The notes: generated by a model not told the origin, from the letters alone. DNA of 64,000 nt from Alphaproteobacteria bacterium (GCA_965228895.1 OZ245842.1:2240001-2304000), one strand, 5' to 3'; positions 5,844-53,696 are shown, counted from the first letter of the stretch. Made by a program: numbers and translations.

Positions 5844-5855
5844 GGGGGCAAGCAG

Positions 5856-6842
5856 ATGGTCGAGATTACCGTACGCGACGCCTTGCGCGATGCTATGGCT
5901 GAAGAGATGCGCCGCGATCCCGATGTCTTCCTGATCGGCGAGGAGGTTGCGGAGTATCAGGGCGCCTACAAGGTGAGCCAGGGTCTGCTCGAAGAGTTCG
6001 GCGCCCGCCGGGTTGTCGACACACCGATCACCGAGCACGGCTTTGCCGGCCTCAGCGTCGGCGCCGCGTTCGCCGGGCTCAGACCCATTACCGAGTTCAT
6101 GACCTTCAACTTCGCCATGCAGGCGATGGACCATCTGATCAACTCGGCGGCCAAGACGCTCTACATGTCGGCCGGCCAGATCAATGTGCCCATCGTGTTT
6201 CGCGGCCCCAACGGTGCTGCCGCGCGTGTCGCCGCACAGCATTCCCAGAATTACGCGAGTTGGTACAGCCATGTCCCCGGCTTGAAGGTTGTCGCGCCTT
6301 ACTCGGCAGAGGATGCCAAGGGCCTTTTGAAGTCGGCGATCCGTGACCCCAATCCTGTGGTCGTCCTTGAGAACGAATTGCTCTATGGCGAGACCTTCAC
6401 GCTGCCCGACGATGACGACTTTCTGGTGCCGATCGGCAAGGCCAAGATCGAGCGCGAAGGCAGCGACGTCACCATTGTCTCGTTCTCGATTGTTCTTGGA
6501 CGGGCGTTGCAGGCTGCCGAGGTTTTGGCTGGCGAAGGGATCGAGGCGGAGGTGATTAACCTCAGGAGCCTGCGCCCGATGGACACAGAGACGATCCTGA
6601 CGTCGCTCGCCAAGACCAACCGACTGGTGTGCGCCGAGGAGGGCTGGCCGCAATCCGGTGTCGGCGCGGAGGTCGCCGCGGTGTGTATGGAGCAGGGGTT
6701 CGACCTGTTGGATGCGCCGGTCAAGCGGGTCTGCGGCGTCGACGTGCCGTTGCCCTATGCCGCCAATCTCGAACATGCGGCGCAGCCGCAGGTCGAGACG
6801 ATTGTCGAGGCGGTCAAGGCCGTCTGTTACACCGATGCCTGA
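5856..6842 (+). CDS. pdhB: Pyruvate dehydrogenase E1 beta subunit (no lipoyl domain)
   Basis: '[13 protein letters not shown]', '[11 protein letters not shown]', '[11 protein letters not shown]', 'VAAQHSQ'. Confidence 0.98.
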
Positions 6843-6862
6843 GCGATGAAGGGGAAACCGAG

Positions 6863-8140
6863 ATGACCATCAACATCACCATGCCCCAGTTGTCGCCGAC
6901 CATGACCGACGGCACGCTCTCCAAGTGGCTCGTGAAGGAAGGCGATAGCGTCACATCCGGCGACGTGCTGGCGGAGATCGAAACCGACAAGGCGACGATG
7001 GAGGTCGAATCCATCGACGAAGGCACGGTCGGCAAGATCCTGGTTGCCGAAGGCACCGACAATGTGCCGGTCAACAACGTCATCGCGGTGTTGCTGGAAG
7101 AGGGCGAGGACGCCTCGGCGCTCGACGGTGTCGATACGGCAGCCGCCGCGCCGGCAGCGGTGCCGGCGGCTGAACCGGAAGCCGCGCCAGCCGAACCCAG
7201 CCAAGCCGAGGAGCCGGCCGCCGCTGCGCCTCAACCGATGGCGGCACCTGCGTCGGAAGATGGCGATCGGGTCAAGGCAAGTCCGTTGGCGCGCAGCATG
7301 GCCAAGCAGGCTGGTGTTGATCTGAGCCAGGTTACTGGCAGCGGCCCGCACGGCCGCATCGTCAAGCGCGATATCGAGGCCGCCTCCGCCGGCGGTGTCG
7401 CGGCCGCTGCGGCACCGGCCGCCGCGCCGATGGCAGCACCGATCATGGCGCCGGGTGCGGCTTATGAGGACGTCAAGCTCTCCAACATGCGCCGCGTCAT
7501 TGCCGAGCGCCTCCAGGAAGCCAAACAGACGATCCCGCATTTCTATCTGACGGTCGATTGTGAGCTCGACCGTCTGCTGGAACTGCGCAAGGAGCTGAAC
7601 AGTCGCTCCGACGACTACAAGCTCAGCGTCAACGACTTCGTCATCAAGGCGCTCGCTGTCGCGCTGCGCAAGGTGCCCGACGCCAACGCGGCGTGGGGCG
7701 GCGATGTGCTGCGCCGGTTCACCACCGTCGACGTTTCGGTTGCCGTGGCGATCGACGGCGGCCTGATCACGCCGATCATCCGTAACGCCGACGCGAAAGG
7801 GCTGGTCGATATCTCCGAGGAGATGAAGGAACTGGCCGGGCGGGCGCGCGAAGGCAAGCTGATGCCCGAGGAGTACCAGGGCGGTACCTTCAGCCTGTCC
7901 AATCTCGGCATGTACGGCATCAAGCAGTTCGATGCGGTGATCAACCCGCCGCAGGCCGGCATCATCGCGGTCGGCGCGGGCGAGCAACGGCCGGTCGTGA
8001 AAGACGGCGCGCTCAGCGTCGCGACCGTCATGAGCTGCACGCTGAGCTGCGATCACCGCGTCATCGACGGCGCGATCGGCGCGCGCTTGCTGACCGCGTT
8101 CAAGGGGTTGATCGAAGAACCGCTGACCATGCTTCTCTAA
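6863..8140 (+). CDS. pdhC: Dihydrolipoamide acetyltransferase (PDH E2)
   Basis: Lipoyl domain 'EIETDKATMEVE', E3-binding domain 'KASPLAR...GSGPHGRI', catalytic 'DHRVIDG'. ATG at 6863 follows an SD. Confidence 0.98.
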   Translation: MTINITMPQLSPTMTDGTLSKWLVKEGDSVTSGDVLAEIETDKATMEVESIDEGTVGKILVAEGTDNVPVNNVIAVLLEEGEDASALDGVDTAAAAPAAVPAAEPEAAPAEPSQAEEPAAAAPQPMAAPASEDGDRVKASPLARSMAKQAGVDLSQVTGSGPHGRIVKRDIEAASAGGVAAAAAPAAAPMAAPIMAPGAAYEDVKLSNMRRVIAERLQEAKQTIPHFYLTVDCELDRLLELRKELNSRSDDYKLSVNDFVIKALAVALRKVPDANAAWGGDVLRRFTTVDVSVAVAIDGGLITPIIRNADAKGLVDISEEMKELAGRAREGKLMPEEYQGGTFSLSNLGMYGIKQFDAVINPPQAGIIAVGAGEQRPVVKDGALSVATVMSCTLSCDHRVIDGAIGARLLTAFKGLIEEPLTMLL

Positions 8141-8151
8141 AGGAGAAACCG

Positions 8152-9555
8152 ATGGCCGATACCTCGTTCGATCTTGTCGTCGTCGGCGGCGGCCCTGGCG
8201 GCTATGTCGCCGCCATCCGCGCAGCTCAGCTCGGCATGAAGGTGGCGTGCGTGGAACGCGAGCATCTCGGCGGGATCTGCCTCAACTGGGGCTGCATTCC
8301 GACCAAGGCGTTGCTGCGCTCATCCGAGATTTTCCATCACCTGAACAATGCCGGCGATTTCGGTCTGACGGTCGGTGATGTCGGTTACGACGCCGGCAAG
8401 ATCGTCGAGCGCAGCCGTCAGGTTGCCGGGCGTCTCTCCAAGGGCGTTGGCTTCCTTCTAAAGAAGAATAAGGTCACGGTCTTCGACGGCGAGGGCAAAC
8501 TGGCCGGCAAGGGCAAACTGGCGGTCACCAAGGACGGCAAGGATGTCGCGACACTCGACGCCAAGAACATCATCCTGGCGACCGGCGCGCGCGCGCGTGA
8601 CCTGCCGGACATCAAGGCCGACGGCAAGCTGATCTGGTCTTACAAGGAAGCCATGGTGCCCGACGCCATGCCAAAATCGGTGCTGGTGATCGGCTCCGGC
8701 GCGATCGGCATCGAGTTCGCGAGTTTCTACCATGACATGGGCGCCGAGGTGACCGTGGTCGAGGTTGTCGACCGCATCCTGCCGGCTGAGGACGAGGAGA
8801 TTTCCGATCTCGCGCTGAAGGCCTTCCAGAAACAGGGGTTGACCATCCATACCGGCACCAAGGTCAAGGCCGCCAAGCCCGCCCAGAAATCCGTCGCCGT
8901 GACGTTCGAGACCAAGGACGGCAAGGAGCAAAAGCTCACCGTTGACCGTGTCGTGCTCGCCGTCGGCATCACCGGCAATGTCGAGGATATCGGTCTTGAA
9001 GGCACCAAGGTCGAGGTCGACCGCGGCCACATCGTCGTCGATGAGTGGCTGGCAACGGGCGAGCCCGGCGTCTACGCCATCGGCGACGTGGTCGGGCCGC
9101 CCTGGCTGGCGCACAAGGCGAGCCATGAGGGCGTCATCTGCGTCGAGAAGATCGCCGGCGTCGAGCACGTCCAGCCGATGATCAAGACCAACATCCCCGG
9201 CTGCACCTATTGCCGGCCCCAGGTCGCCAGTGTCGGCCTGACGGAAGCCGTGGCCAAGGAGCAGGGCCACAAACTGAAGGTCGGCCGCTTCCCGTTCATC
9301 GGTAACGGCAAGGCGATCGCGCTCGGTGACGACCAGGGTCTGGTCAAGACGATCTTCGATGCCGACACCGGCGAATTGCTGGGTGCCCATATGATCGGCG
9401 CCGAGGTGACCGAGCTGATCCAGGGGTTCTGCATCGCCAAAACGCTCGAAACGACCGAGGTGGAGCTGATGGAGACCATTTTCCCCCATCCCACGCTCTC
9501 GGAGATGATGCATGAGTCGGTCCTTGCGGCCTATGACCGGGTCATCCACATATAG
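8152..9555 (+). CDS. lpdA: Dihydrolipoyl dehydrogenase (E3)
   Basis: 'GGGPGGYVAA', redox disulfide 'GGICLNWGCIPTK', C-terminal 'HPTLSE'. Confidence 0.99.
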   Translation: MADTSFDLVVVGGGPGGYVAAIRAAQLGMKVACVEREHLGGICLNWGCIPTKALLRSSEIFHHLNNAGDFGLTVGDVGYDAGKIVERSRQVAGRLSKGVGFLLKKNKVTVFDGEGKLAGKGKLAVTKDGKDVATLDAKNIILATGARARDLPDIKADGKLIWSYKEAMVPDAMPKSVLVIGSGAIGIEFASFYHDMGAEVTVVEVVDRILPAEDEEISDLALKAFQKQGLTIHTGTKVKAAKPAQKSVAVTFETKDGKEQKLTVDRVVLAVGITGNVEDIGLEGTKVEVDRGHIVVDEWLATGEPGVYAIGDVVGPPWLAHKASHEGVICVEKIAGVEHVQPMIKTNIPGCTYCRPQVASVGLTEAVAKEQGHKLKVGRFPFIGNGKAIALGDDQGLVKTIFDADTGELLGAHMIGAEVTELIQGFCIAKTLETTEVELMETIFPHPTLSEMMHESVLAAYDRVIHI

Positions 9556-38996: not shown

Positions 38997-39041
38997 GCGG
39001 GCCGGTGAGATTCCAAGCATCTCATCGGCCCGCAACTTTTT
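38997..39041 (+). terminator. Rho-independent terminator of the parA operon
   Basis: Stem GCGGGCCGGTGAGA / TCTCATCGGCCCGC followed by AACTTTTT, between convergent genes. Confidence 0.7.
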
Positions 39042-39053
39042 CGGACCGATGAA

Positions 39054-39944
39054 CTAGGCCGCGTGCTCCACGATGAACGCGCCGGCGCGCGCCAATGCCG
39101 CGTTGGCTTCCGGCACTTCTGGCGCCAGATGATGCCAGACATGCGGGGCGCCCTCTTCGATCTCCAGAACCGCTGTGCTGCCGGCCGCTGTCATTCCGTC
39201 GGCGAGTGAGCGCGCATCGTCCAGCAGCAGTTCGGTATCGCCGACCTGGATTAGGATCGGCGGTAAGCCTGAAAGATCGCCGTGATGGGGCGCCACATAG
39301 GGATGGCGAAGGTTGTCGCCGTTCAGATACGTCTCAACAAAAACCTCGAGTTCGCCGACGCTCAGGAAGGCGTCACGGTCGGGATCGCCGGCGCGCCACG
39401 TGCCCTCGCCTTCCATGTCGCACCACGGCGATATCGCGACACCACATGCGGGCAAAGGCAGTCCTTCGTCGCGCAAGCGCAGCATGACGGCGAACACCAG
39501 CCCGCCGCCCGCCGAATCGCCGGCAAAGGCGATCCGGCGGCTGTCGCCCATCTCCTGCACCAGGGCACGATAGGCTTCGACACAGTCATCGATGGCGGCG
39601 GGAAACAGATGCTCCGGCGCCAGCCGATACTCCGGAAAGAAGAGCCGGCAACCCGCCGCCTTTGCAAGTCTCGTGACGATCATGATGTGGCTCTTCGTCG
39701 ATCCCATCGCGTAGCCGCCACCATGAAAATAGAGGATGGCGCGATCGGGGTCGGCGTTCGGCGGGTCGAATTGCCATCCCGGCACGCCGCCCAGCGCCGT
39801 CCGGTTTGCGGTCACGCTGTCGTCGCCGGGAAACTCATCGCCCAGCTCGTCGTAGGACACCCGGCGCTCGGCCATGGTGGCGTCTTCAGGTAGCACAGCC
39901 TCGGCCAGAATCTTCTTGTAACGCTCAAGCTCAGGGCTGGGCAT
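39054..39944 (-). CDS. HSL-family (abhydrolase_3) esterase/lipase
   Basis: 'YFHGGGY', 'YRLAPEH.FPAA', 'GDSAGGGL', 'PHVWH'. Confidence 0.93.
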   Translation of the reverse strand: MPSPELERYKKILAEAVLPEDATMAERRVSYDELGDEFPGDDSVTANRTALGGVPGWQFDPPNADPDRAILYFHGGGYAMGSTKSHIMIVTRLAKAAGCRLFFPEYRLAPEHLFPAAIDDCVEAYRALVQEMGDSRRIAFAGDSAGGGLVFAVMLRLRDEGLPLPACGVAISPWCDMEGEGTWRAGDPDRDAFLSVGELEVFVETYLNGDNLRHPYVAPHHGDLSGLPPILIQVGDTELLLDDARSLADGMTAAGSTAVLEIEEGAPHVWHHLAPEVPEANAALARAGAFIVEHAA

Positions 39945-39946
39945 GG

Positions 39947-40846
39947 CTAGGCTCCCGTGTGTCGTTGAACAAAGATACCAATGCGGTCGATGGCCGCCAT
40001 GGCTTCCGGCAGCAACGGCACCGCGTGATGCCAGACGTGAAAGGCGCCCTCTTCGATCTCCAGCGTCGCGTCGACACCGGCGGCCTCGGCGTGATCGGCA
40101 AGCCTCGTGGCGTCACTGAGCAGGACTTCCAGGGTGCCGACTTGGATCAGGAGCGGCGGCAGGCCAGTAAGGTCGCCGAAGATGGGTGATGCCAGAGGAT
40201 CGCGCTGGTCAGCGCCGTTCATGTAGTCGGTGGCGAAGCTGATAAGTGCGGGCGCGTCACAAATGGGATCCGAAGCCGGATCGGCGTCACGCCAGGCGCC
40301 CCGTCCATCGAGATCGGTCCACGGAGAAATTGGAATGGCACAGGCCGGCTGTGGCAAACCTTCGTCGCGCAAGGCGAGTAGCAGGGCGACGGTCAGCCCG
40401 CCGCCGGCGGAATCGCCGGATACGGCAGTGCTCTTGGCGTCATACCCTTCATCGAGCAGCCAACGGTAGGCCGCGACCGCATCCTCGACGGCCGTCGGAA
40501 AGGGATGTTCGGGAGCAAGACGATAATCGAGGGCAAGCACCTTTGCCTTTGCTGCGCCGGACAGACGCGACGTCAGGCCGATGTGGGTCGATACGGAGCC
40601 AGAGACGTAGCCGCCGCCGTGCAGGTAGAGGAGCACACTGTCATCCCGGGCGGTGCTGGCGGTCTGCCATTGTGCGGGTACGCCGCCGGCCACCGTGTCC
40701 ACCGTTCTGACGCCTTTGGCGATGGGGAACATCCGGCCGAACTCTTCGTATTGGTCCCGGATCTCCGCTAGTGGCCGATCGGGCGGCGCCTTGGCCTGCT
40801 CATCGTAGAGCGCCGCGATGAACCGTTCCATCTGCTTGCTGACCAA
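39947..40846 (-). CDS. HSL-family (abhydrolase_3) esterase/lipase, tandem paralog
   Basis: 'YLHGGGY', 'DYRLAPEHPFP', 'GDSAGGGL', 'FHVWH'. Confidence 0.93.
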   Translation of the reverse strand: MVSKQMERFIAALYDEQAKAPPDRPLAEIRDQYEEFGRMFPIAKGVRTVDTVAGGVPAQWQTASTARDDSVLLYLHGGGYVSGSVSTHIGLTSRLSGAAKAKVLALDYRLAPEHPFPTAVEDAVAAYRWLLDEGYDAKSTAVSGDSAGGGLTVALLLALRDEGLPQPACAIPISPWTDLDGRGAWRDADPASDPICDAPALISFATDYMNGADQRDPLASPIFGDLTGLPPLLIQVGTLEVLLSDATRLADHAEAAGVDATLEIEEGAFHVWHHAVPLLPEAMAAIDRIGIFVQRHTGA

Positions 40847-40859
40847 GAATGTCCTCCTG

Positions 40860-41516
40860 CTATGCAGTGGCGCGCACCGCCATCATGGCAATGCCGGTCG
40901 CCGCATGAACGGGGTCGATCACCCTCACCCCAACGGCGCGTTCTAACATCGATCCATACGGCACCATGCCGGCGCAGCCAAGAATCACGACATCGGCGCC
41001 GCGATCCTTCAACCGCTGGGCAGCGGCGCCAAGTTCCTTTGCGGCGCGCCTTGTATCATCAAGTCCGGTTACGGCAATTCCGCACGCCTCAATACCGGCA
41101 AGTCGTGCGTCGAGGCCGAGTCCTCGAATCTGACGCAGGCCGGACCCAATGTCGTCTGCCATGTTGGTCAAAATGCCGTAGTGCTCGCCGAAATTGAGCG
41201 CCGTTGTCACACCGCCCTCACAGATCCCAATGACCGGCTTACGTGTGGTCTCGCGTGCAGAGGCCAGGCCCGGGTCGCCGAAACAGGCGATGACAAAGGC
41301 GTCGGCGCGTCTGTCTTCGCGTGCGATAAGATCGCATAGCGGACCGACAACCTGATCGGCGTGGCGCGCCGTTTCGATACCACGCGGTGCGTCATCCAGG
41401 GTTTCACAGCGAATTTCGGGTCCACCTGTGAATCGCAGGGTTTCCAGGTTGCGGTCCATGGCCGCGGTGACGGCGCGGTCACTGTTGGGGTTGATGACGA
41501 CAATCCGTCCGTGCAT
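40860..41516 (-). CDS. Hydantoin racemase (Asp/Glu/hydantoin racemase family)
   Basis: 'IVVINPNS', two catalytic Cys in 'IACFGDPGL' and 'ILGCAGM', 'VIDPV'. ATG at 41516. Confidence 0.9.
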   Translation of the reverse strand: MHGRIVVINPNSDRAVTAAMDRNLETLRFTGGPEIRCETLDDAPRGIETARHADQVVGPLCDLIAREDRRADAFVIACFGDPGLASARETTRKPVIGICEGGVTTALNFGEHYGILTNMADDIGSGLRQIRGLGLDARLAGIEACGIAVTGLDDTRRAAKELGAAAQRLKDRGADVVILGCAGMVPYGSMLERAVGVRVIDPVHAATGIAMMAVRATA

Positions 41517-41603
41517 GGCGGCCTCCCCGTCCCCGGCCTTCTCGACGCGTGCCGGAGTATGCCACGATGCCCGGGCGGGAACAGCCAGGCCGAGGAGAAT
41601 GAC

Positions 41604-42545
41604 ATGGCGCGGATGATGAAGGTGGCGGCGGCACAAATGGGGCCGGTTGCGCGTGAGGATACGCGCCAGCAGGTCGTTGCCCGTCTTCTTGAGATGATGC
41701 GCGAAGCCGCCGGCTGGGGCGCCGATGTGGTCGTGTTCTCGGAACTGGCGCTGACCACGTTCTTCCCGCGTTGGGTGATCGAGGACGAGGACGAAACCGA
41801 TCGTTGGTATGAACGCGATATGCCGAGCGCGGCGACCCAGCCGCTGTTTGATGAAGCAGCCAAGCTGGGCATTGGCTTTCACCTTGGCTTCGCCGAACTG
41901 GCCTTTGACGACGACGGCACCAAACATCGTTTCAACACGTCGATCCTGGTCGACAAGGCCGGTGCCATCGTTGGCAAATTCCGCAAGGTCCACATTCCCG
42001 GACATGCCGAGGCCAAAGACCGGCCGGGTCAGCATCTGGAGAAACGCTACTTCGAGGTCGGCGACCTCGGCTTTCCGGTCTACCGCGCCTTCGGCGGCAT
42101 CATTGGCATGTGCATATGCAACGACCGGCGCTGGCCCGAGACCTGGAGGGTCATGGGATTGCAAGGCGTCGAAATGGTGTTCTGCGGCTACAACTCCCCG
42201 GTCGGCCTGGGCGACACCTTTGATCTCGACGCGCTCGAGCCGTTCCACAACCACCTGGTCTTCCAGTCAGGCTGTTATCAGAACGCGACCTGGGCGGTCG
42301 GCGTCGCCAAGTGCGGCAACGAAGAAGGTTTCAACATGATCGGCCAGAGTTGCATCGTCGCCCCGTCGGGCGAAATCGTGGCGCAATGCGGGTCGATCGA
42401 GGACGAGGTGATCGTGCACAAATGCGACCTGGATGCGGCCCGCGCCTACAAGGACGACATCTTCAATTTCGCACGGCACCGCCAGCCGCAGCACTATCGC
42501 CTGATCGTCGAACGCACCGGCGCGGAGCCGCCGCCGGAGACTTAG
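41604..42545 (+). CDS. N-carbamoyl-D-amino-acid amidohydrolase (D-carbamoylase, nitrilase fold)
   Basis: 'FSELALTTFFPRW' (Glu), 'FRKVHIPGH' (Lys), 'QHLEKRYF', 'MCICNDRRWPE' (Cys), 'FNFARHRQP': the Agrobacterium-type D-carbamoylase signatures. Confidence 0.93.
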   Translation: MARMMKVAAAQMGPVAREDTRQQVVARLLEMMREAAGWGADVVVFSELALTTFFPRWVIEDEDETDRWYERDMPSAATQPLFDEAAKLGIGFHLGFAELAFDDDGTKHRFNTSILVDKAGAIVGKFRKVHIPGHAEAKDRPGQHLEKRYFEVGDLGFPVYRAFGGIIGMCICNDRRWPETWRVMGLQGVEMVFCGYNSPVGLGDTFDLDALEPFHNHLVFQSGCYQNATWAVGVAKCGNEEGFNMIGQSCIVAPSGEIVAQCGSIEDEVIVHKCDLDAARAYKDDIFNFARHRQPQHYRLIVERTGAEPPPET

Positions 42546-43978
42546 TCCTCCTCACCCCGCCACAGGTCTGCCGGCGTCTCGGCGCGGCGGATGGTCTTGA
42601 CCGAACCGTTTTCGCAAACCATCACCGCGCCCGGACGCGGGCGCCCGCAATAATGGTTGGCGAGCTCCAGTTGATAAGCGCCGGTATCGAGGATGGCGAC
42701 GAGGTCGCCGCTGGTCGTCGCGGCCGGCAGTTCGCGGTAGCCCGGCATGTGAACGAGCTTGTTTTCGAGCAAGTCGCGGTCTTCCGCCCAACCCGGCCGT
42801 GCGTCGACCAGAGCCTGGACCTTGGCCTCGCCCTCCATGTCGAAATAGACATCAATGGAGTCACAAAGAGGTCCGACGACGCGGAATTGGTCGGTCTCCG
42901 TATCGTCGGTCCGGTTGGCCGTTACCATGTGGAAGTACCAGCCGAAGGCCGATTCCGGGATGATGTTGTAGCCGGCGTCCAGGTAGAGCCACGTTGTGCC
43001 GTCGCGCCGCTTCAGGCCCTCGACCCGCGTCAACAGCAGCGCGCTGTCGCTGGTCATGGCGCGTCCCGGCTCGGTCAGGATTTCGATGCCGGAACCGAGC
43101 TTGTCTTCCAGGACCGGCACGACCTTCGCCGCCACATCGCTTGGCTCGAGGGCGCTGTGGAAGTAGCCGATGTCCGGCGACTGGTCGTTGTACTTGACGT
43201 AGCTGATCGGAAAACCGCCGCCGACGTTGACGTGCCGGAAATCGTCGCCGAAGCGTGCCTTGATAGCCGCCGCCTTCTCAGCCACCACCTCGGCTGCAGC
43301 GACGTAGAGGCCGAGATCGGTCATCTGGGATCCGATATGGACGTGCAGGCCGGCAAGCGCGATCTCGCCTGGTTGCGCCTCGGCGATTTCCAGGCAACGC
43401 GCGATCTCGTCTTCGACCATGCCGAATTTGGAGCGCGTCGAGCCGGTCTCGATACCCGCCGTCGAGCCGCCTTCGACATGGGGCACGGCGCGTAGCGCGA
43501 TGTTCGCACGCACGCCCCGCGCACGTGCGACATCGACGATACGCTCGAGTTCGTGGACTGAATCCACGTTGATCGCTTTGATCGGTGGGTCGAGGGCGTC
43601 CTCGATCTCTTGTTTCGATTTGGCAACGCCGTTGAACACCATGCGGTCGGCGCCCAGGCCGGCGTGTTTGGCCTTGGCGATTTCACCGCCGGAATTGACC
43701 TCTATCGCCACCCCCTCCTCGGCCATCAGCCGGAGCACGGTCAGATTGGCGCAGGCTTTGCTCGCGAAACACACGCTCGCGTTTTCGTGGTGGTCGCGGA
43801 AGGCCGCGGTCAGCCGTCTGGCGTTCCGGCGCAACCGTTGTTCGGAATAGGCAAACACCGGCGAGCCCTGTTCCTCTGCGATCCCCACAAGATCGACGCC
43901 GTCCATATGAAGGTGACCGTCACGATCCTCCAAAAAGCCCGGTTCCGACCACGGGTTCAGGTGGAATGCGTCTTTCAT
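42542..43978 (-). CDS. Fold-III PLP-dependent amino-acid decarboxylase (diaminopimelate / D-ornithine decarboxylase-like)
   Basis: 'FASKAC' (PLP Lys), 'HVHIGSQ', 'NVGGGF', 'EPGR', 'GPLCDSID', 'DTGAY'. SD AGGGAGG precedes ATG 43978. Confidence 0.88.
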   Translation of the reverse strand: MKDAFHLNPWSEPGFLEDRDGHLHMDGVDLVGIAEEQGSPVFAYSEQRLRRNARRLTAAFRDHHENASVCFASKACANLTVLRLMAEEGVAIEVNSGGEIAKAKHAGLGADRMVFNGVAKSKQEIEDALDPPIKAINVDSVHELERIVDVARARGVRANIALRAVPHVEGGSTAGIETGSTRSKFGMVEDEIARCLEIAEAQPGEIALAGLHVHIGSQMTDLGLYVAAAEVVAEKAAAIKARFGDDFRHVNVGGGFPISYVKYNDQSPDIGYFHSALEPSDVAAKVVPVLEDKLGSGIEILTEPGRAMTSDSALLLTRVEGLKRRDGTTWLYLDAGYNIIPESAFGWYFHMVTANRTDDTETDQFRVVGPLCDSIDVYFDMEGEAKVQALVDARPGWAEDRDLLENKLVHMPGYRELPAATTSGDLVAILDTGAYQLELANHYCGRPRPGAVMVCENGSVKTIRRAETPADLWRGEED

Positions 43979-44040
43979 CGTCGGCCTCCCTTCGGCGTCT
44001 ACACCGGACATGGTAGGTATGGCATGGCGGGAGGAGCCGG

Positions 44041-45473
44041 ATGGCTGATTTTGATCTGATCGTCAAGGACGGGACCGTGGTGACGGCCAGCGACACCTAT
44101 GCCGGCGATATCGGCGTGCGTGACGGTCGCATCGTCGCGCTGGCCGAAAACCTTCCCTCATCACGGGCCGAGACGGTGGTCGATGCGTCAGGCAAACTCG
44201 TTCTGCCCGGCGGTATCGAGGCACATTGCCATATCGACGAGCCCAGTTTTGGCGGCGCTGTGCTGGCTGACGACTTTGCTTCGGGTTCCGTGGCTGCAGC
44301 CTGTGGTGGGACGACGACCTTCATTCCCTTCGCGACCCAGGTGCCGGGCCAGACGTTGCGTCAGGCTGTCGACGACTATCACGCCAAGGCCGAAGGCCAA
44401 TCGCTGATCGACTATAGCTTCCACATGATCGTCTCGGACCCAACGGATCAGGTCCTGGGTCAAGAACTTCCCGGTCTGCTGCATGACGGCTACACCTCCT
44501 TCAAGGTCTTCATGACCTATGATGACTTTTGCCTGGATGACGGCGAAATCCTGAATGTCCTGGCAACCGCGAAGCGTCACGATGGTTTTGTCATGGTGCA
44601 TGCGGAAAACGATCACTGCATACGTTGGCTCGCCGAGCAGCTTGAGCGGGCCGGTCAGACGGAGCCGGCATCGTTTTCCATCGCCCACGGACCGGTCGCC
44701 GAGCGCGAAGCGACGCACCGCGCCATCAGCTTGGCGGAGATCGTCGATACACCTGTCTTCATCGTTCATGTCTCGTCAGCTCAAGCGATGGAGCAGATCG
44801 CCTGGGCGCAGGCGCGCGGTTTGCCCGTCTACGCGGAGACCTGTCCGCAATACTTTTTCTGTCCGACCAGGACTTCAAGCGGGAGGGCTGGGAAGGTGCG
44901 AAGTATCTATGTGCGCCGCCGCCGCGCGATCCCGGTAATCCCGATCGGCTATGGCGGGGTTTGAAAAACGGCACCTTCCAATTGATTTCGTCGGACCATT
45001 GCCCCTACCGGATGGAAGGACCGGGCGGCCGCATCGAGTCCGCGGGCGAACTCCATTTCCACAAGATCAGTCCGGGCGTTCCGGGCATCGAACTGCGTCT
45101 GCCACTGATGTTTTCCGAAGGCGTGACCAAAGGCCGCATCGATCTCAACCGCTTCGTTGCGCTGACCGCGACCGATGCCGCCAAACTCTATGGGCTCTAT
45201 CCCCAGAAGGGCACCATTGCCGTCGGCAGCGACGCCGATCTGGTGCTTTGGGACCCCGAGCGGCGCACCACCATTCGCCACGAGATGCTCCATGAAGGCG
45301 CGGACTATACGCCCTATGAGGGTTTTGAGCTGACGGGATGGCCGGTTCTGACGCTGTCGCGCGGCGAGACCGTATGGCAGGACGGGCAGGTCCATGGCAA
45401 ACGTGGTCGCGGTCGGTTTCTAAGGCGCGGCAGGTCGGCCGCAATCGGGCGGAGTCAGCCCTGCTCGACCTGA
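44041..45473 (+). pseudogene. hydA: Dihydropyrimidinase/D-hydantoinase split by a 1-nt frameshift at about 44854-44858
   Basis: N-terminal part has 'PGGIEAHCH', 'SFKVFMTY', 'MVHAEN', 'IVHVSS', 'AETCPQY'. The -1 frame continues 'LSDQDF..EGAKYLCAPPPR...SSDHCPY...PGIELRLPL...KGTIAVGSDADLV...DYTPYEG'. Confidence 0.9.
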
Positions 45474-45530: not shown

Positions 45531-46268
45531 GTGAGGATGGCGTTTAAGCGGTTGTTACCGCTAGGTGCGTGTCTGGCGTTGGCGGGAACCGCACAGGCAC
45601 AAGGGCTTGAAGGTATTGGCAACGTTGATCTGGTGGAGGTCTGGGCCTACGGCACGCCGCCGGGCGGCGAGCGCGATTCCATCTTTCGCGGTCATCAAGT
45701 CTATACCGACCAAACCATCGAAACGGTGTCGAGGGCTTATGTGCACATGACCTTTGTCGATGGTACGACGCTGGCGATTGGCGAGAGCACGATCTTGGTT
45801 CTCGATGATTTCGTCTACGATCCCAATGCTCCCGATAGCTTGGTCGCTGATTTCACCGGCGGTCTCTATCACCTGATTTCCGGCGACATCGACAAACAGG
45901 CGGTCCTGATCCGAACACCTGGGCTCGCGATCGGCTTGCGCGGGACGGACATCGTCGTGCAAGTCGGCGAAGACGGCACGACCGATCTGGCGGTCCTGGA
46001 CGGCACGGCCACGGCGACACCGACTGCCGGCGGCGACACGGTCGAGGTCAATGCCGGCCAGACGGCGACGGGCAAACCCGGCGATCCTACGGTTGTTCTG
46101 ACCAACGGCTTGCCGGCCTTCGCCACCACCGACTTACCGACCGGCACAAGAGGCACCCGAAATCTGGGCGGCGCTGCTGGCGATGGGCGTACCGGCGTTG
46201 GTGGCGATGGAGACAGCAGCAGTGGCGGCGACTCGAGCAGCGGGTCCAGCAGTGGAGGCATAAACTGA
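45531..46268 (+). CDS. Secreted FecR-domain protein with Gly/Ser-rich tail
   Basis: Signal peptide 'LALAGTAQA'; 'FVDGTTLAIGESTILVLDDFVYDP', 'IRTPGLAIGLRGT', 'VLDG'. Confidence 0.82.
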   Translation: MRMAFKRLLPLGACLALAGTAQAQGLEGIGNVDLVEVWAYGTPPGGERDSIFRGHQVYTDQTIETVSRAYVHMTFVDGTTLAIGESTILVLDDFVYDPNAPDSLVADFTGGLYHLISGDIDKQAVLIRTPGLAIGLRGTDIVVQVGEDGTTDLAVLDGTATATPTAGGDTVEVNAGQTATGKPGDPTVVLTNGLPAFATTDLPTGTRGTRNLGGAAGDGRTGVGGDGDSSSGGDSSSGSSSGGIN

Positions 46269-46299: not shown

Positions 46300-47094
46300 A
46301 TGGCGATGACCATCACCCGGTGGGTCGACATGGCGACGATCGACTTCGCGACGCTTGACCCCGCGCGCACGATAGCCTTGTTGCCCGTCGGCGCTGTTGA
46401 GCAGCACGGCCCTCACCTGCCGCTTGGAACCGACACCATGATCGCCGACGGTATCGTGGCGCGGACGCTTGATGTCGTTGACGGCGACATCACCGTCCTG
46501 GTCCTGCCGACACAATCCATTGGCGATAGCCTGGAGCACGCCGACTTCCCGGGTACGCTGAGCCATATGGCGGAGACCTTGATCGCATCGTGGCTGGAAC
46601 TAGGTCGCTCGGTCCATGCTGCGGGTTTGCGCAAGATGATGATCTTCAACGCGCATGGCGGCCAACCTCAGATCGTTGATATCGTCGCCAAGCGCCTGCG
46701 TGTCGAACTGGACATGCTGGTCGGGCGTGCGACGTATTTCTCGTTCGGTTGCCCAGACGGTCTGATCGACCCGGACGAGTTCGCCTTCGGGATTCATGGC
46801 GGTGATCTCGAAACGTCCATGATGCTTCATCTGCACCCGGACTTGGTGCGGCGAGACAACATGGCTGACTTCGAGAACCGCATGCGCACCATCGCCCCCA
46901 CGATGCACCGCATGGGGCGCGGCGGACGCACCGGTATTGGCTGGAAGGCGAGCGATCTCAATCAGGCGGGTGCCGTCGGCAATGCCGACGCCGCGACGGC
47001 GGAGAAAGGCCGGGCCTTGGTCGAGCACTTTGCTGATGAATTGGCGCTTCGGCTTGCCGATCTCGCAGCTTTCGATTTGGCAGACCTGCGGTGA
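46300..47094 (+). CDS. Creatininase / creatinine amidohydrolase family protein
   Basis: 'LPVGAVEQHGPHLPLGTD', 'SLEHADFPGTLS', 'NAHGGQ', 'HGGDLETS', 'ATAEKG'. Confidence 0.92.
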   Translation: MAMTITRWVDMATIDFATLDPARTIALLPVGAVEQHGPHLPLGTDTMIADGIVARTLDVVDGDITVLVLPTQSIGDSLEHADFPGTLSHMAETLIASWLELGRSVHAAGLRKMMIFNAHGGQPQIVDIVAKRLRVELDMLVGRATYFSFGCPDGLIDPDEFAFGIHGGDLETSMMLHLHPDLVRRDNMADFENRMRTIAPTMHRMGRGGRTGIGWKASDLNQAGAVGNADAATAEKGRALVEHFADELALRLADLAAFDLADLR

Positions 47095-51270: not shown

Positions 51271-52443
51271 ATGGACGATCGCTTTACCGATACCGACCGT
51301 GACATCCGCCGTCGCGCGGCTGAGTTCACGGACACGTACCTTATTCCCCTGGAGGAGCCGACCGAGGAACGCGGCGGTCACTGGAGTTGGGCGGAGACCC
51401 AGCACGTGCGCGATGCGGCTGTCGAATACGGCCTCTCCGCCATCAACATCAAGAAGGAGTACGGCGGTCAGGAGTTCACGGTCCTGCAACAAATCCTGGT
51501 GCACGAGGAGATCGGCCGGGCGACTAACGGTCTCTTCGCCCTGCTCCCCTTCCCCCATGTGCCCCTGCAGCACGGCACCAAAGAACAAATCGACGGTTAT
51601 CTACGGCCGATGTGCGCGGGCAAGATTCGCTCGGCGTTTCTGGTGACCGAAGAAGGCGCGGGCTCCGATCCGCGTCAGGTCAAGACGAAAGCGATGCGCA
51701 AGGGCAACGGGTTCGTGGTGACCGGCGAGAAGTGGTTCGCGACATCAGCCGACGTTTCCCAGGTGCAGATCGTCCACGCCCATGTCGACGATGACCCCGG
51801 TCAGCCGACCCTGTTCTTGATCCCGACCGCCCGCGATGGCGTCACCATCAAGGAACTGCCCACCTTCACCCACAACTATGTCTTTGGCCATCCGGTGATG
51901 GCCTTCGACGAGGTCGAGGTCGGCGCCGATGAAATCCTCGGTGAAGTCGGCCAAGGTTACGAGCTGACCAAGGATTGGTTTGTCGAGGCACGGCTTGAGA
52001 TCTGCGCCCACTGCATCGGCCAATCCCGGCGCGCGGCCCTGGTCGCCAACGCCTGGGCCGGTGAGCGTGAGCAGTTCGGTCAGAAGATCCAGGACTTCCA
52101 GGCGATCCGTTTCATGATCGCCGACATGGCCGTCGCCATTTATGCCATGCAGAGCATGGTCTATCGCCTGGCCGGTGACATTGACCGCGGAATCGACCGC
52201 AAGACCGCACATGCCCAGGCGAGCGCCGCCAAGCTGTTTTGTTCCGAACAAGCCGGCAAGGTCGTCGACGGCGCCGTCCAGATCCTGGGCGGACGCGGCT
52301 ACATGCGCAAGAATCCGGTCGAACGCCTTTATCGCGATGTGCGTGTCGAGCGCATTTGGGAGGGCACCTCCGAGGTGCAGCGCGATGTTATCGGCCGCAT
52401 GGTCGCCAAGCGCGGCCTGGGCCGTTACAGCCTGTGGGACTGA
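51271..52443 (+). CDS. Acyl-CoA dehydrogenase (tandem paralog)
   Basis: 'VTEEGAGSDP', 'TGEKWF', 'EREQFGQKI', 'QILGGRGY', 'RIWEGTSEVQR'. Confidence 0.94.
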   Translation: MDDRFTDTDRDIRRRAAEFTDTYLIPLEEPTEERGGHWSWAETQHVRDAAVEYGLSAINIKKEYGGQEFTVLQQILVHEEIGRATNGLFALLPFPHVPLQHGTKEQIDGYLRPMCAGKIRSAFLVTEEGAGSDPRQVKTKAMRKGNGFVVTGEKWFATSADVSQVQIVHAHVDDDPGQPTLFLIPTARDGVTIKELPTFTHNYVFGHPVMAFDEVEVGADEILGEVGQGYELTKDWFVEARLEICAHCIGQSRRAALVANAWAGEREQFGQKIQDFQAIRFMIADMAVAIYAMQSMVYRLAGDIDRGIDRKTAHAQASAAKLFCSEQAGKVVDGAVQILGGRGYMRKNPVERLYRDVRVERIWEGTSEVQRDVIGRMVAKRGLGRYSLWD

Positions 52444-52445
52444 CC

Positions 52446-53696
52446 ATGAAACATCCGGAGTCGCTCAAGGAGATCGTCGAAAACGGCCTTTGCGTCGGCT
52501 GTGGTCTCTGCCAGTCGATCGCCGGGACCGACCGCGTCGAGATGACCATGGTCGACCCGCCGGGCCGGTTGCGGCCGCGTATCAAGGCGCCTCTCGACGA
52601 CGAGACGGAAAAGACCATCCTGGCGGCCTGCCCGGGTGCGTTGATCGACGAGCCCGTCGAAACCGATCGCCATGGCGCCGACGTAAAGGTCGACGCTTCC
52701 TTCGGTCCGTGGCGCCGCGTTTGGAAGGGCCATGCGAGCGAGCCCGAAATTCATCACATGGCATCGTCAGGAGGCTCGCTGACCGCGCTCGGTATCTTCC
52801 TTTTGGAGACCGGCAAGGTCGACTTCGTGCTGCACGTCGCCGCGTCAAAAGAAAAGCCCATGCGGACTGAACGACACTTGTCGTTCGATCGTGCTCAGGT
52901 TCTTGAAGGCGCGGGATCGCGTTATGGCCCTTCGTCGCCCTTGATCGATTTCACCGATCAGCTCGACAAGGGCAAACCCTTCGCGGTGATCGGCAAACCC
53001 TGCGACATCTCCGGCGTCCACAACATGCGCAAGGTCGATCCGCGCGTCGACGAGCTCGTCAAGTACACGATGGCGTTTTCCTGCGGCACGTTTGCCGATC
53101 TGCAGTGTTCACGCTGGATGCTGGATCGCCAGGGCGTCCCTGGCGGTGAGGAGAACCTCTCGCTGTTCCGTTACCGTGGTTATGGCTGTCCCGGGCCGAC
53201 GCGCGCGGTGACGAAGGACGGCCAGGTCTTCGACGAACCCTATCTGGATTTCTGGTATGGCCCGCACGGCTGGACCCACCAGTTCCGCTGCAAGATCTGC
53301 CCCGACCCGACCGGTGAAATGACGGATATCTCAATCTCCGATGCCTGGCCGGGCGGCGGACCGACCGAAGAAGAATGGGGTGGTTACAGCCTCTTCATCA
53401 GCCGCACGCTGAGGGGCGATGCGCTGATGCAAGAGGCGATCGATGCAGGCGCGATAACCGTCGAACCAAGCGACATGACGGCGCTCCATGATTGCCAGCC
53501 ACACCAGGCGGTCAAGAAAGACGGTATGAACGCGCGTCTTCAAGCCATCGAGGACGAAGGCGGCGTTGGCCCAGTCTATCGCCATGTCCGATTGGACGAA
53601 GCGGCGGCCCAACGGGACGGCGTGTTCTATGAGGAGAACCGGGCGGGCACGCGCGAGCGGATTCGAAAAGGTGTCAACCGTGAATCACTCCCCTGA
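52446..53696 (+). CDS. FrhB/FdhB-family Fe-S flavoprotein (F420 hydrogenase beta-subunit-like) with N-terminal ferredoxin motif
   Basis: 'LCVGCGLC...CPG', 'SSGGSLTAL', 'AGSRYGP', 'GKPCD', 'RCKICPD.TGEMTDISISDAW'. Confidence 0.88.
   Translation: MKHPESLKEIVENGLCVGCGLCQSIAGTDRVEMTMVDPPGRLRPRIKAPLDDETEKTILAACPGALIDEPVETDRHGADVKVDASFGPWRRVWKGHASEPEIHHMASSGGSLTALGIFLLETGKVDFVLHVAASKEKPMRTERHLSFDRAQVLEGAGSRYGPSSPLIDFTDQLDKGKPFAVIGKPCDISGVHNMRKVDPRVDELVKYTMAFSCGTFADLQCSRWMLDRQGVPGGEENLSLFRYRGYGCPGPTRAVTKDGQVFDEPYLDFWYGPHGWTHQFRCKICPDPTGEMTDISISDAWPGGGPTEEEWGGYSLFISRTLRGDALMQEAIDAGAITVEPSDMTALHDCQPHQAVKKDGMNARLQAIEDEGGVGPVYRHVRLDEAAAQRDGVFYEENRAGTRERIRKGVNRESLP

Follow-up and report, generated by a model that had tools for sequence, protein, structure and literature searches.

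A hydantoin-gene cluster with an embedded decarboxylase related to DokD suggests a route from hydantoins to amines

Introduction

D-hydantoinase, D-carbamoylase and hydantoin racemase are the workhorses of industrial D-amino-acid production, and the hyu clusters of Agrobacterium, Arthrobacter and Pseudomonas are used in the industrial 'hydantoinase process'. To our knowledge, the natural substrates and the physiological role of the enzymes of this process remain unclear. Here we ask what a fold-III PLP-dependent decarboxylase does among such genes in an alphaproteobacterium. The locus lies in a 64,000-nucleotide stretch of genomic DNA (OZ245842.1:2240001-2304000 of assembly GCA_965228895.1; hereafter the window). 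We found no published description in the literature of a hydantoin cluster with such a decarboxylase.

Results

Genes between positions 40860 and 45473 were called from open reading frames and Pfam and NCBIfam profile matches (Table 1). The calls bear out the arrangement described in an earlier note on this DNA, in which a racemase (-), a D-carbamoylase (+), a fold-III decarboxylase (-) and a hydantoinase (+) adjoin one another. The decarboxylase frame is open from 42542 to 44011 on the minus strand; since the homologues are 478-480 amino acids long, the likely start was placed at 43978. The motifs that the note had quoted for this enzyme (FASKAC, EVNSGGE, FNGVAK, DAGYNIIPESAFGWYFH, AYQLELANHYCGRPR and HIGSQ) are all present in its translation. 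No transporter or fold-III racemase within or beside the cluster is found among the annotated genes of the window. A consensus promoter scan returned 0 promoter-like sites, and terminator-like sites occurred at chance level (7 versus 5.5 expected).

Table 1. Features of the hydantoin-gene cluster and its surroundings, in window positions
Feature	Position	Strand	Evidence
Two hormone-sensitive-lipase-type esterases	39947-40846, 39054-39944	-	PF07859, 193 and 190 bits
Hydantoin racemase (Asp/Glu/hydantoin racemase family), 220 aa	40860..41522	-	PF01177, 162.7 bits
N-carbamoyl-D-amino-acid hydrolase (putative D-carbamoylase; CN-hydrolase), 314 aa	41601..42545	+	PF00795, 159.4 bits
DokD-related fold-III PLP decarboxylase, 478 aa	42542..43978	-	PF02784 and PF00278
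D-hydantoinase/dihydropyrimidinase, split over two frames	44041..45473	+	PRK13404, TIGR02033
D-hydantoinase, N-terminal part	44041..44852	+	PRK13404 410.5 bits, TIGR02033 296.3 bits, model positions 2-272
1-base deletion site, just ahead of the T run 44854-44858	44853..44853	+	Comparison with relatives
D-hydantoinase, C-terminal part, shifted frame	44854..45473	+	PRK13404 239.4 bits, model positions 307-466
FecR-like secreted protein	45531-46268	+	PF04773, 31.9 bits
Creatininase-family hydrolase	46300-47094	+	PF02633, 230 bits
FrhB/FdhB-family flavin/FeS protein	52239..53696	+	PF04432 and PF04422

The top PDB matches of the racemase are 3qvj (a putative hydantoin racemase, 76.8 bits), 2eq5 and 5lfd, all of them hydantoin or allantoin racemases and including the hydantoin racemase of P. 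horikoshii, and both of its catalytic Cys motifs, ACFGDPG and LGCAGM, align with those of solved relatives. No NCBIfam equivalog matched this protein, so its hydantoin substrate is putative. The CN-hydrolase aligns over residues 2-309 with eleven distinct solved D-carbamoylase sequences (8i99, 6le2, 1fo6, 1erz and others) at 376-385 bits, whereas N-carbamoylputrescine amidase scores 78 bits against it; 1fo6 and 1erz, at 381 and 379 bits, are Agrobacterium enzymes. The motifs that carry the catalytic Glu, Lys and Cys (PELA, RK.H.PG and ICNDRRW) align as well. By this likeness the protein is a D-carbamoylase (EC 3.5.1.77), its stereospecificity being putative.

The two esterase genes come immediately after the racemase, downstream and likewise on the minus strand, and the pair also adjoins the racemase at loci L022 and L119, a single copy doing so at L116; the esterase nearer the racemase scores 281 bits against NF058651, under the cut-off of 430. 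On the other side, the hydantoinase is followed by the FecR-like protein and then the creatininase-family hydrolase, an order kept in G002, G003, G007 and L119. The FrhB/FdhB-family protein further downstream shares 44% identity over 405 amino acids with the product of the gene directly downstream of the L162 decarboxylase. Homologues stand at most 1.4 kb from the decarboxylase at L027, L154, L161, L162 and L177, and a partial one about 8.6 kb from it at L119; the protein is possibly a further component of the cluster.

The D-hydantoinase lacks an intact full-length reading frame. The gene is split at 44852/44853 into frames 44041-44964, which runs out of frame to the stop at 44964, and 44961-45473, and the genome profile search gave a second hydantoinase match at 44844-45428. 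At the break the window reads CAA TA- CTT TTT CTG, where four relatives carry TAC/TAT CTx; the two halves are 920 nt apart in the window versus 921 nt, in frame, in the loci of four relatives, and a contig of sequencing run X2, from a 99.7% identical strain, has an extra C behind 44852. The split results from one missing base after 44852, a deletion absent from the earlier note. Programmed frameshifting was rejected as the main reading of the split, because the base missing here is there in both the relatives and strain X2. The orthologue in G002 is intact and scores 418 bits to the solved D-hydantoinases 1nfg and 1k1d.

Owing to this deletion the hydantoin-opening step is probably impaired in this strain. 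The cluster might then be a decaying relic here, the frameshift ending the flow from hydantoins and leaving the other genes either inactive or serving N-carbamoyl-D-amino acids only. Contigs of X1, possibly the source sample, and of X3 were assembled independently and share the deletion with the window, while the X2 strain keeps the base and every relative compared is in frame; all of these contigs have a depth of 3-11 and are not raw reads. The runs that match the window include none of RNA. The lesion is recent, however, since the remaining three cluster genes are undamaged and the two parts of the hydantoinase keep high scores (410.5 and 239.4 bits). Moreover, the genome encodes a second dihydropyrimidinase/D-hydantoinase elsewhere (555 bits), and low-level -1 slippage at the C-TTTTT-C of the break could restore the frame. 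Decay of the cluster in this strain is a serious but minority prospect.

The decarboxylase scores 331.7-332.5 bits against TIGR01048, the lysA model, above its cut-off of 297.9. A search of the genome for another lysA, proposed in the earlier note, found a canonical one (G000:C1:4735564-4736784; 448 bits to TIGR01048), and canonical lysA (460-535 bits) is likewise present in addition to the family member (318-323 bits) in three of three other genomes tested. The lysA of this genome is a different gene from the window decarboxylase. By raw identity the candidate affiliations cannot be told apart, at 35% to the genome's own LysA and 33% to DokD. The reference for the latter (DOKDC, STM2360; model NF052544; PDB 6n2h and others) is the D-ornithine/D-lysine decarboxylase of Salmonella Typhimurium.

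The main tree comprises 46 rows (LG+G4; support given as ultrafast bootstrap/SH-aLRT), a subset of 89 rows of which the 43 omitted add more members to the three groups already sampled. Thirteen rows on the canonical LysA side, with the genome's own LysA among them, form one clade (98/100); the 13 rows of the decarboxylase family form another (87/93); and DokD, represented by P0148, sits in a four-row clade (100/98) that excludes the window family. Support for joining the family to DokD is weak (89/43). A quick LG+G4 tree of all 89 rows agrees, with 92 SH-aLRT for the canonical LysA split. Against NF052544, the model for DokD (EC 4.1.1.116), the window enzyme scores 289.7 bits with a cut-off of 700, whereas the true DokD representative P0148 scores 724.4, and the enzyme was rejected as a DokD orthologue on this score and its separate clade. 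Among 300 sampled gammaproteobacterial genomes (G672 left unscored), no DokD scored above the NF052544 cut-off. The best solved sequence match is nonetheless DokD (227.6 bits; the best diaminopimelate decarboxylase (DAPDC), that of M. jannaschii, reaches 198.7), and DokD chains fill the top ten fold ranks of an AF2 model (pLDDT 83), with M. jannaschii DAPDC nearly as close (E = 2.6e-39 versus 5.5e-41 for DokD). The likeness to DokD that the note had suggested is upheld in part, by the best solved match in sequence and predicted fold, the distal acidic residue and the equivalent of Tyr-430. The enzyme belongs to a clade of its own, so far uncharacterised, that is related to the DokD of Salmonella.

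This clade differs from LysA in the distal part of the active site. The Arg of the 'RPxLY' motif, present in the genome's own LysA and nine other LysA-side rows listed, is Glu in the window decarboxylase (NIIPES), and GPVCES of the genome's LysA reads GPLCDS, so that the 'CES' Glu is Asp. CES or CET occurs in nine of ten canonical LysA-side rows listed in the alignment; E or D at the Arg position goes with CDS or CDN in the window protein and in each of the 17 family rows listed. A motif search found Glu or Asp at the distal Arg position in 58 of 64 family loci, the other six being three search artefacts, two truncated sequences and one with Ser. According to PMC8277567, the distal carboxylate of DAP is held in T. 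maritima DAPDC by Arg249 and Arg285 and the distal amine by Glu315, a position taken by Asp in ODC and ADC. From these substitutions, the distal pocket of the window enzyme seems to fit a cationic side chain that lacks a distal carboxylate. An acidic residue in place of the distal Arg of DAPDC reportedly defines the specificity of DokD, a result credited to Phillips et al. in 2019.

To see whether the association with hydantoin genes extends beyond this genome, we examined neighbourhoods of 7 kb around 64 family loci (at least 41% identity). Because a scan with the full-length alignment had keyed on sequence shared by LysA in general, with 3 family members among 80 loci, the C-terminal alignment was used for a family-specific scan of metagenomes. 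The four genes are syntenic in one genome of the same genus, and a carbamoylase and/or hydantoinase stands within 7 kb at 27 of the 64 loci (carbamoylase at 21, hydantoinase at 18), so that the co-occurrence on which the note had made its proposal depend does exist. Many of the 27 are co-directional carbamoylase-decarboxylase-hydantoinase operons, with same-strand gaps often of 12-51 nt (for example L148, L152, L155, L185, L162 and L027). The loci are not independent, several being near-identical: at 90% identity they collapse into 37 clusters, 18 of which have a hydantoinase or carbamoylase, and at 70% identity into 15, with four. In a sister clade of at most 40% identity, taken as a negative control, neither neighbour was found at any of 27 loci, and the distal position is Ser in 26 of the 27.

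Hydantoinase and carbamoylase are absent within 7 kb at the other 37 family loci, so the family is not bound to hydantoins as such. A D-aminoacylase-like gene (226 bits to 1m7j) is a neighbour at 11 of the 64 loci and an M81/MlrC peptidase at eight, and an S12 D-peptidase-like gene adjoins the decarboxylase in L030 and L022. Six loci have a substrate-binding protein that scores 247.9 bits against the Lys/Arg/Orn subfamily TIGR01096 (cut-off 256.35). In all, 25 loci beyond the 27 have a D-aminoacylase-like gene, an M81 peptidase or a transporter of this Lys/Arg/Orn type as neighbour.

Discussion

Gene identities, the tree position, the active-site substitutions and the linkage that recurs in other genomes are established by the above observations. 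We propose, with a probability of roughly 0.6, that the cluster encodes a pathway for breaking down 5-substituted hydantoins or N-carbamoyl-D-amino acids, its last step being the decarboxylation of a basic D-amino acid to an amine. The racemase would interconvert the hydantoin enantiomers, D-hydantoinase would open the ring to the N-carbamoyl-D-amino acid, D-carbamoylase would release the free D-amino acid, and the fold-III PLP enzyme would decarboxylate this product at its D-centre, giving an achiral amine and CO2. Since the amine is achiral, the last step would remove the D-stereocentre without a racemase or an oxidase. Given the cationic-type distal pocket without a carboxylate site, D-lysine, D-ornithine, D-arginine or similar compounds are the likeliest substrates, and cadaverine, putrescine or agmatine-type amines would be the products. 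The same path, from hydantoin through N-carbamoyl-D-amino acid and D-amino acid to amine, had been drawn in the earlier note, and comparative genomics lends it support through the separate lysA and the recurring linkage. The order of the reactions, the D-specificity, the basic substrate and the catabolic direction are what we infer from the genes. The literature that we found records no 5-(aminoalkyl)hydantoins or N-carbamoyl-D-basic amino acids of natural origin.

It is unlikely, though worth weighing, that the decarboxylase does work together with the carbamoylase and hydantoinase yet acts on something other than D-Lys, D-Orn or D-Arg, so that the end product is no common polyamine. The substrate might then be another amino acid with a D-centre, for instance a ureido or hydroxylated one or a shorter diamino acid, or else a specialised metabolite with an amino-acid end. 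A family-specific insert of about 35 residues follows GPLCDS (residues about 382-416) and has no counterpart in DokD, the distal residue is Glu versus Asp in DokD, and the Tyr-430 position varies between subclades. The recurrent FrhB-like flavin/FeS protein, DAO-family oxidoreductases, esterases and creatininase-family hydrolase suggest a more elaborate compound, and PotD/PotF-like binding proteins match weakly (about 80 bits versus cut-offs of 582-636). However, an acidic distal residue together with 'CD' characterises enzymes whose ligand ends in an ammonium or guanidinium group, the binding protein close to the Lys/Arg/Orn cut-off goes with one subclade, and the nearest characterised enzyme, DokD, takes D-Orn, D-Lys and, slowly, D-Arg (PMC13294871).

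A second meso-DAP decarboxylase, be it an isozyme or a LysA that breaks down DAP scavenged from peptidoglycan, with no pathway meaning in its hydantoin-gene setting, is suggested by the score above the TIGR01048 cut-off, by database names (all but one family entry is a 'diaminopimelate decarboxylase', a single JGI entry being a D-ornithine/D-lysine decarboxylase), by the LysA-dependent catabolism of exogenous DAP in marine Pseudomonadota (PMC9602339) together with the marine-metagenome labels of the runs that contain parts of the window, and by D-peptidase, D-aminoacylase and M81 neighbours that could process peptidoglycan fragments, but it is made very improbable by the Glu or Asp in place of the Arg for the DAP distal carboxylate at 58 of 64 loci, by the Asp in place of the 'CES' Glu (role as in PMC8277567), by the position outside the canonical LysA clade (98/100), by the presence of canonical lysA in addition to the family member in four of four genomes, and by tight D-carbamoylase operons across several divergent lineages.

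There is also a wider idea, to which we give somewhat less than an even chance: that this phylogenetically scattered fold-III clade consists of dedicated D-amino-acid decarboxylases, a chirality-erasing exit for basic D-amino acids behind four kinds of hydrolase that likely free them (D-hydantoinase/D-carbamoylase, D-aminoacylase, S12 D-peptidase and M81 peptidase). If so, the carbamoylase-decarboxylase-hydantoinase operons would be the long-sought natural counterpart of the hydantoinase process, a pathway from hydantoins and N-carbamoyl-D-amino acids to polyamines. The decarboxylase within the operons would give the natural pathway its end point, an amine and not a D-amino acid, and would narrow the candidate substrates to those with cationic side chains. 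The known D-amino-acid decarboxylases, now the single enterobacterial enzyme DokD, would become a broad family; because nearly every database name in the family is that of diaminopimelate decarboxylase, lysine-biosynthesis annotations would need correcting; and new enzymes would be at hand for making amines from racemic hydantoins.

With LysA, the window enzyme has in common the fold and the catalytic core (the ASKA Lys, HxHxGSQ, GGG, EPGR and the Cys loop), and LysA too decarboxylates at a D-centre. It differs in having neither the distal-carboxylate Arg nor the 'CES' Glu, in its place outside the canonical clade, and in that the family enzyme is a second copy in all four genomes checked.

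With DokD, it shares the fold-III PLP decarboxylase class and a length of about 470-480 amino acids, and each gene is an extra paralogue alongside a normal lysA-type repertoire. At the distal Arg of LysA both have an acidic residue, the window Glu aligning with the DokD Asp, and both read 'GPLCD' in place of 'CES' (DokD continuing as 'CDG'). The Cys of GPLC aligns with Cys-387 of DokD, variants of which are described in PMC13294871. The Tyr of NHYCGRPR aligns with Tyr-430 in TVYNNRPR, a residue that is F in the Y430F entry 8d2y; since the subclade richest in carbamoylase-decarboxylase-hydantoinase operons has Asn at this position (TPNNGR), D-specificity cannot be argued from it family-wide. 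The two are set apart by an identity of 33%, the Glu in place of Asp, the insert after the Cys loop, and their neighbours, which in the dokD operon are an ornithine-racemase gene and homologues of amino-acid transporters (PMC13397332) and here D-carbamoylase, D-hydantoinase and hydantoin racemase.

That trio of hydantoin racemase, D-hydantoinase and D-carbamoylase is common to the window cluster and the hyu clusters. The hyu clusters that are known to us, those in the papers found included, stop at the free amino acid and have no fold-III decarboxylase, whereas the window cluster embeds one, and in many loci of the family the decarboxylase gene comes directly after the carbamoylase gene.

Enzymes of the cluster

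The fold-III PLP decarboxylase of the window is best explained, as judged from its sequence and gene context, as an enzyme that decarboxylates basic D-amino acids. We favour this reading because its gene repeatedly comes immediately after genes for hydrolases that set D-amino acids free or have relatives that do, because the distal-carboxylate site of diaminopimelate decarboxylase (LysA) has been lost and an acidic pocket like that of ODC and DokD (the D-ornithine/D-lysine decarboxylase of Salmonella) gained, and because some loci pair the gene with uptake proteins of the basic-amino-acid or polyamine type.

The four genes on alternating strands at 40860-45473, described in the earlier note, were confirmed as ORFs with Pfam/NCBIfam matches in a window of 62% G+C, and every peptide motif cited there was found in the translation. 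The D-carbamoylase assignment is strong: the protein matched eleven distinct solved N-carbamoyl-D-amino-acid hydrolase sequences over its full length with 376-385 bits, against 78 bits for N-carbamoylputrescine amidase. The closest solved structures of the racemase are hydantoin and allantoin racemases, and both Cys motifs are retained. An intact hydantoinase orthologue from a genome of the same genus gave 418 bits to the solved D-hydantoinases 1nfg and 1k1d. The carbamoylase and decarboxylase genes overlap by 4 nt, and the decarboxylase likely starts at 43978, since its homologues are 478-480 aa long.

Features of the cluster and its surroundings
Feature	Position	Strand	Remark
Hairpin with T-rich tail	38997-39033		15 pairs, GC-rich
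Hormone-sensitive-lipase-type esterase	39054-39944	-	paralogue of the next
Hormone-sensitive-lipase-type esterase	39947-40846	-	
Asp/Glu/hydantoin racemase	40860-41522	-	PF01177, 162.7 bits
CN-hydrolase (D-carbamoylase)	41601-42545	+	family match and solved D-carbamoylases
Fold-III PLP decarboxylase	42542-44011	-	ORF
D-hydantoinase/dihydropyrimidinase	44041-45473	+	two reading frames
Frameshift site	44848-44859		TAC-TTTTT-C
FecR-domain protein	45531-46268	+	signal-peptide-like N-terminus
Creatininase-family hydrolase	46300-47094	+	127 bits to MftE, 88 to creatininase, each under its cut-off
FrhB/FdhB-family protein	52239-53696	+	behind TetR and two acyl-CoA dehydrogenase genes

Downstream of the racemase gene, on its strand, come the two esterase genes, after spacers of 13 and 2 nt; the pair also stands beside the racemase in a genome of the same genus (G002, locus L022) and in locus L119, and a single copy does so in L116. 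The hairpin, which separates the end of this esterase operon from the converging gene upstream, probably serves as a bidirectional terminator at the left border of the cluster. On the other side, the order hydantoinase, FecR-like and creatininase-family gene is common to G002, G003, G007 and L119. Because creatinine is a 2-iminohydantoin, the creatininase-family hydrolase could conceivably be linked to the cluster by its chemistry.

Hydantoinase frameshift

The hydantoinase of the window is split over two frames, a lesion that the earlier note does not mention: NCBIfam matches end at model position 272 and restart at 307. Relatives have one extra base at CAA TA[C] CTT, and the two halves are 921 nt apart in the G002, G003, G007 and G010 loci and 920 nt apart in the window. 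We compared public assemblies over 44400-45300, all of them contigs with a depth of 3-11. A contig of run X1, possibly the window's own source, was identical to the window, and a 151-nt contig of run X3, which shares its organism label and study with X1, spans the deletion site with no difference; neither run is independent of the window. A contig of run X2, from another organism label and study, differs from the window by 2 substitutions in 901 nt and carries an additional C behind 44852, restoring ...QYLFLSDQD.... The deletion is thus genuine, a recent frameshift at strain level rather than a family trait, since the relatives and X2 have the base that the window, X1 and X3 lack. A second dihydropyrimidinase (555 bits) is encoded elsewhere in the genome. 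If a -1 slip occurred on the T run at the frameshift site, it would restore the frame, and a leaky full-length hydantoinase is therefore conceivable.

Distribution and gene neighbourhoods

The decarboxylase family, by which we mean the clade of the window enzyme, has a patchy distribution. Full-length relatives with 49-91% identity were found in 6 of 40 related genomes, and a class-wide sample of another 400 genomes added three, which belong to a single genus. The named members are alpha- and gammaproteobacterial, apart from one in a Chloroflexota MAG.

Gene neighbourhoods are the main evidence for our reading of the decarboxylase. Co-occurrence of the four genes outside the window, on which the claim of the earlier note depended, was found in G002, which retains racemase, carbamoylase, decarboxylase, hydantoinase, both esterases and the FecR-like and creatininase genes, with an additional beta-lactamase/S12-family gene (6699-8528, minus strand, in L022) between carbamoylase and decarboxylase. 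G003, G007 and G010 retain the divergent decarboxylase-hydantoinase pair; in G011 the decarboxylase and carbamoylase genes diverge and are accompanied by PotD-like binding proteins. In a Hypericibacter MAG flagged as unpublished (G424, locus L027), a single strand encodes binding protein, carbamoylase, decarboxylase, hydantoinase and an FrhB-like protein, and the spacers on either side of the decarboxylase measure 0-12 nt; the same operon was seen again in metagenome loci that are public.

Scanning metagenome contigs specifically for this family yielded 80 loci; together with the genomic loci, 64 were at least 41% identical to the window decarboxylase. Within 7 kb of the decarboxylase, 27 of the 64 had a carbamoylase and/or hydantoinase gene (21 carbamoylase, 18 hydantoinase), 11 a D-aminoacylase-like amidohydrolase (226 bits to 1m7j), 8 an M81/MlrC-family peptidase and 6 a polar-amino-acid ABC system, whose binding protein scored 247.9 bits to the Lys/Arg/Orn subfamily TIGR01096, slightly below the cut-off of 256.35; 12 loci, mostly short contigs, had none of these. 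The carbamoylase typically lies directly upstream of the decarboxylase on the same strand, at 12-51 nt (for example L148, L152, L155, L185, L147 and L162). An S12 serine-hydrolase gene adjoins the decarboxylase in two loci, Microbulbifer L030 and G002 L022, and the best matches of the Microbulbifer copy are R61 DD-peptidase, alkaline D-peptidase and D-aminopeptidase. The 64 loci are not independent: clustering at 90% identity left 37 clusters (18 with carbamoylase/hydantoinase, 4 D-aminoacylase-like, 6 M81, 2 ABC and 7 none), and at 70% identity 15 (4, 2, 4, 1 and 4, respectively). The control consisted of 27 loci from the same scan that belong to a neighbouring clade and are at most 40% identical; Ser occupies the distal position in 26 of them. 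No gene for a carbamoylase, a hydantoinase, a D-aminoacylase-like protein or an M81 peptidase was seen near the decarboxylase in any of the 27, although many had 9-10 kb flanks.

Several other features of these loci deserve mention. Among the metagenome loci L163-L194 are fold-III decarboxylases of a sister clade that share 36-40% identity with the window protein; they have 'DAGYSLxxS', 'GPLCDS', 'QYNGR' and a distal Ser, and lack all of the D-hydrolase neighbours. In L027 (11968-13206), L162 (8852-10141), L154, L161 and L177, the gene that comes directly after the decarboxylase or hydantoinase encodes an FrhB/FdhB-family flavin/FeS protein. The window copy, 44% identical to that of L162, lies 8 kb off. 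This protein may provide the pathway with a redox step that has gone unrecognised. In six carbamoylase-decarboxylase loci, namely L150, L151, L158, L159, L166 (10456-11013) and L168, the decarboxylase is directly followed by a conserved protein of 117-185 aa without a Pfam match; L168 encodes another fold-III decarboxylase as well, at 5147-6430.

The proposed route would lead from hydantoin through N-carbamoyl-D-amino acid and D-amino acid to amine, with the decarboxylase completing it in the window. Decarboxylation would abolish the stereocentre, so that the cell would need neither a racemase nor an oxidase for the D-product. This interpretation, put forward in the earlier note, is supported by comparative genomics, as distinct from biochemical proof. 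Natural aminoalkyl-hydantoins were not documented in the literature consulted. The genes for carbamoylase and decarboxylase form the tightest unit, so some lineages may in fact enter the route at the N-carbamoyl-D-amino acids. Titles and abstract openings, in a search with most subscription journals outside its coverage, yielded no published hydantoinase/carbamoylase/decarboxylase cluster; under the same coverage, all matches for 'DOKDC' concern the Salmonella enzyme.

Relation to LysA and DokD

The possibility that the window gene is simply the genome's only lysA was dismissed by a canonical lysA at G000:C1:4735564-4736784, with 448 bits to the lysA profile TIGR01048 against 331.7 for the window gene. 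The same holds for the three other genomes tested that carry a family member (G422, G423 and G424, which are those of P. guineae, Microbulbifer magnicolonia and the Hypericibacter MAG): each has a separate, canonical lysA (460-535 bits) in addition to the family member (318-323 bits). Measured against profile cut-offs, the window decarboxylase is over that of lysA (332.5 versus 297.9) and under that of DokD (289.7 versus 700), and nearly all database names seen for its clade are diaminopimelate decarboxylase. Sequence identity, at 33% with DokD and 35% with the LysA of the same genome, does not decide between the two. The best solved sequence match is DokD (227.6 bits; M. jannaschii DAPDC, 198.7). 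With an AF2 model (mean pLDDT 83), DokD chains took all top 10 ranks by fold (E about 5e-41, TM 0.78-0.83) and M. jannaschii DAPDC came next (E 2.6e-39). This is a modest margin.

We built a careful tree of 46 rows (LG+G4; supports are ultrafast bootstrap/SH-aLRT). A third fold-III decarboxylase of the genome served as tree outgroup; that protein (G000:C1:2131329-2132363, locus L003) has 146 bits to lysA and ODC-like motifs. The canonical LysA side, including the genome's own LysA, formed a single clade of 13 rows (98/100), the window family another of 13 rows (87/93), and P0148, a true DokD representative with 724.4 bits to the DokD profile NF052544, fell in a separate 4-row clade (100/98). 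Grouping of the family with DokD and other intermediates was weakly supported (89/43). A quick 89-row tree gave the same picture. These comparisons place the window decarboxylase in a distinct clade; it is not the housekeeping LysA, and it is not orthologous to DokD.

PMC8277567 describes, for T. maritima DAPDC, binding of the distal carboxylate of DAP by Arg249 (EPGR) and Arg285 and of its distal amine by Glu315 of the partner subunit, a position occupied by Asp in ODC and ADC. In our alignment, Arg at the '..MND..RP.LY' position is present in all ten LysA-side rows shown (the genome's own LysA and 9 others), and 'CES/CET' in nine of them. The window decarboxylase has Glu at this Arg position ('YNIIPES') and 'GPLCDS'; Glu or Asp occupies it in 17/17 family rows shown. 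A motif search found Glu or Asp at the distal position in 58 of the 64 family loci, the other six being 3 search artefacts, 2 truncated sequences and 1 Ser.

DokD likewise has Asp at the LysA Arg position, with 'GPLCDG'. The Arg-to-Asp change and Tyr-430 are said, by Phillips et al. in 2019, to explain the substrate specificity and D-specificity of DokD. We located Tyr-430 through the Y430F entry 8d2y, which has Phe at the same place; the aligned Tyr is present in the window decarboxylase (NHYCGRPR) and is Asn in a Hypericibacter-like subclade (TPNNGR). The family differs from DokD in an insert of roughly 35 residues after the Cys loop, which DokD lacks.
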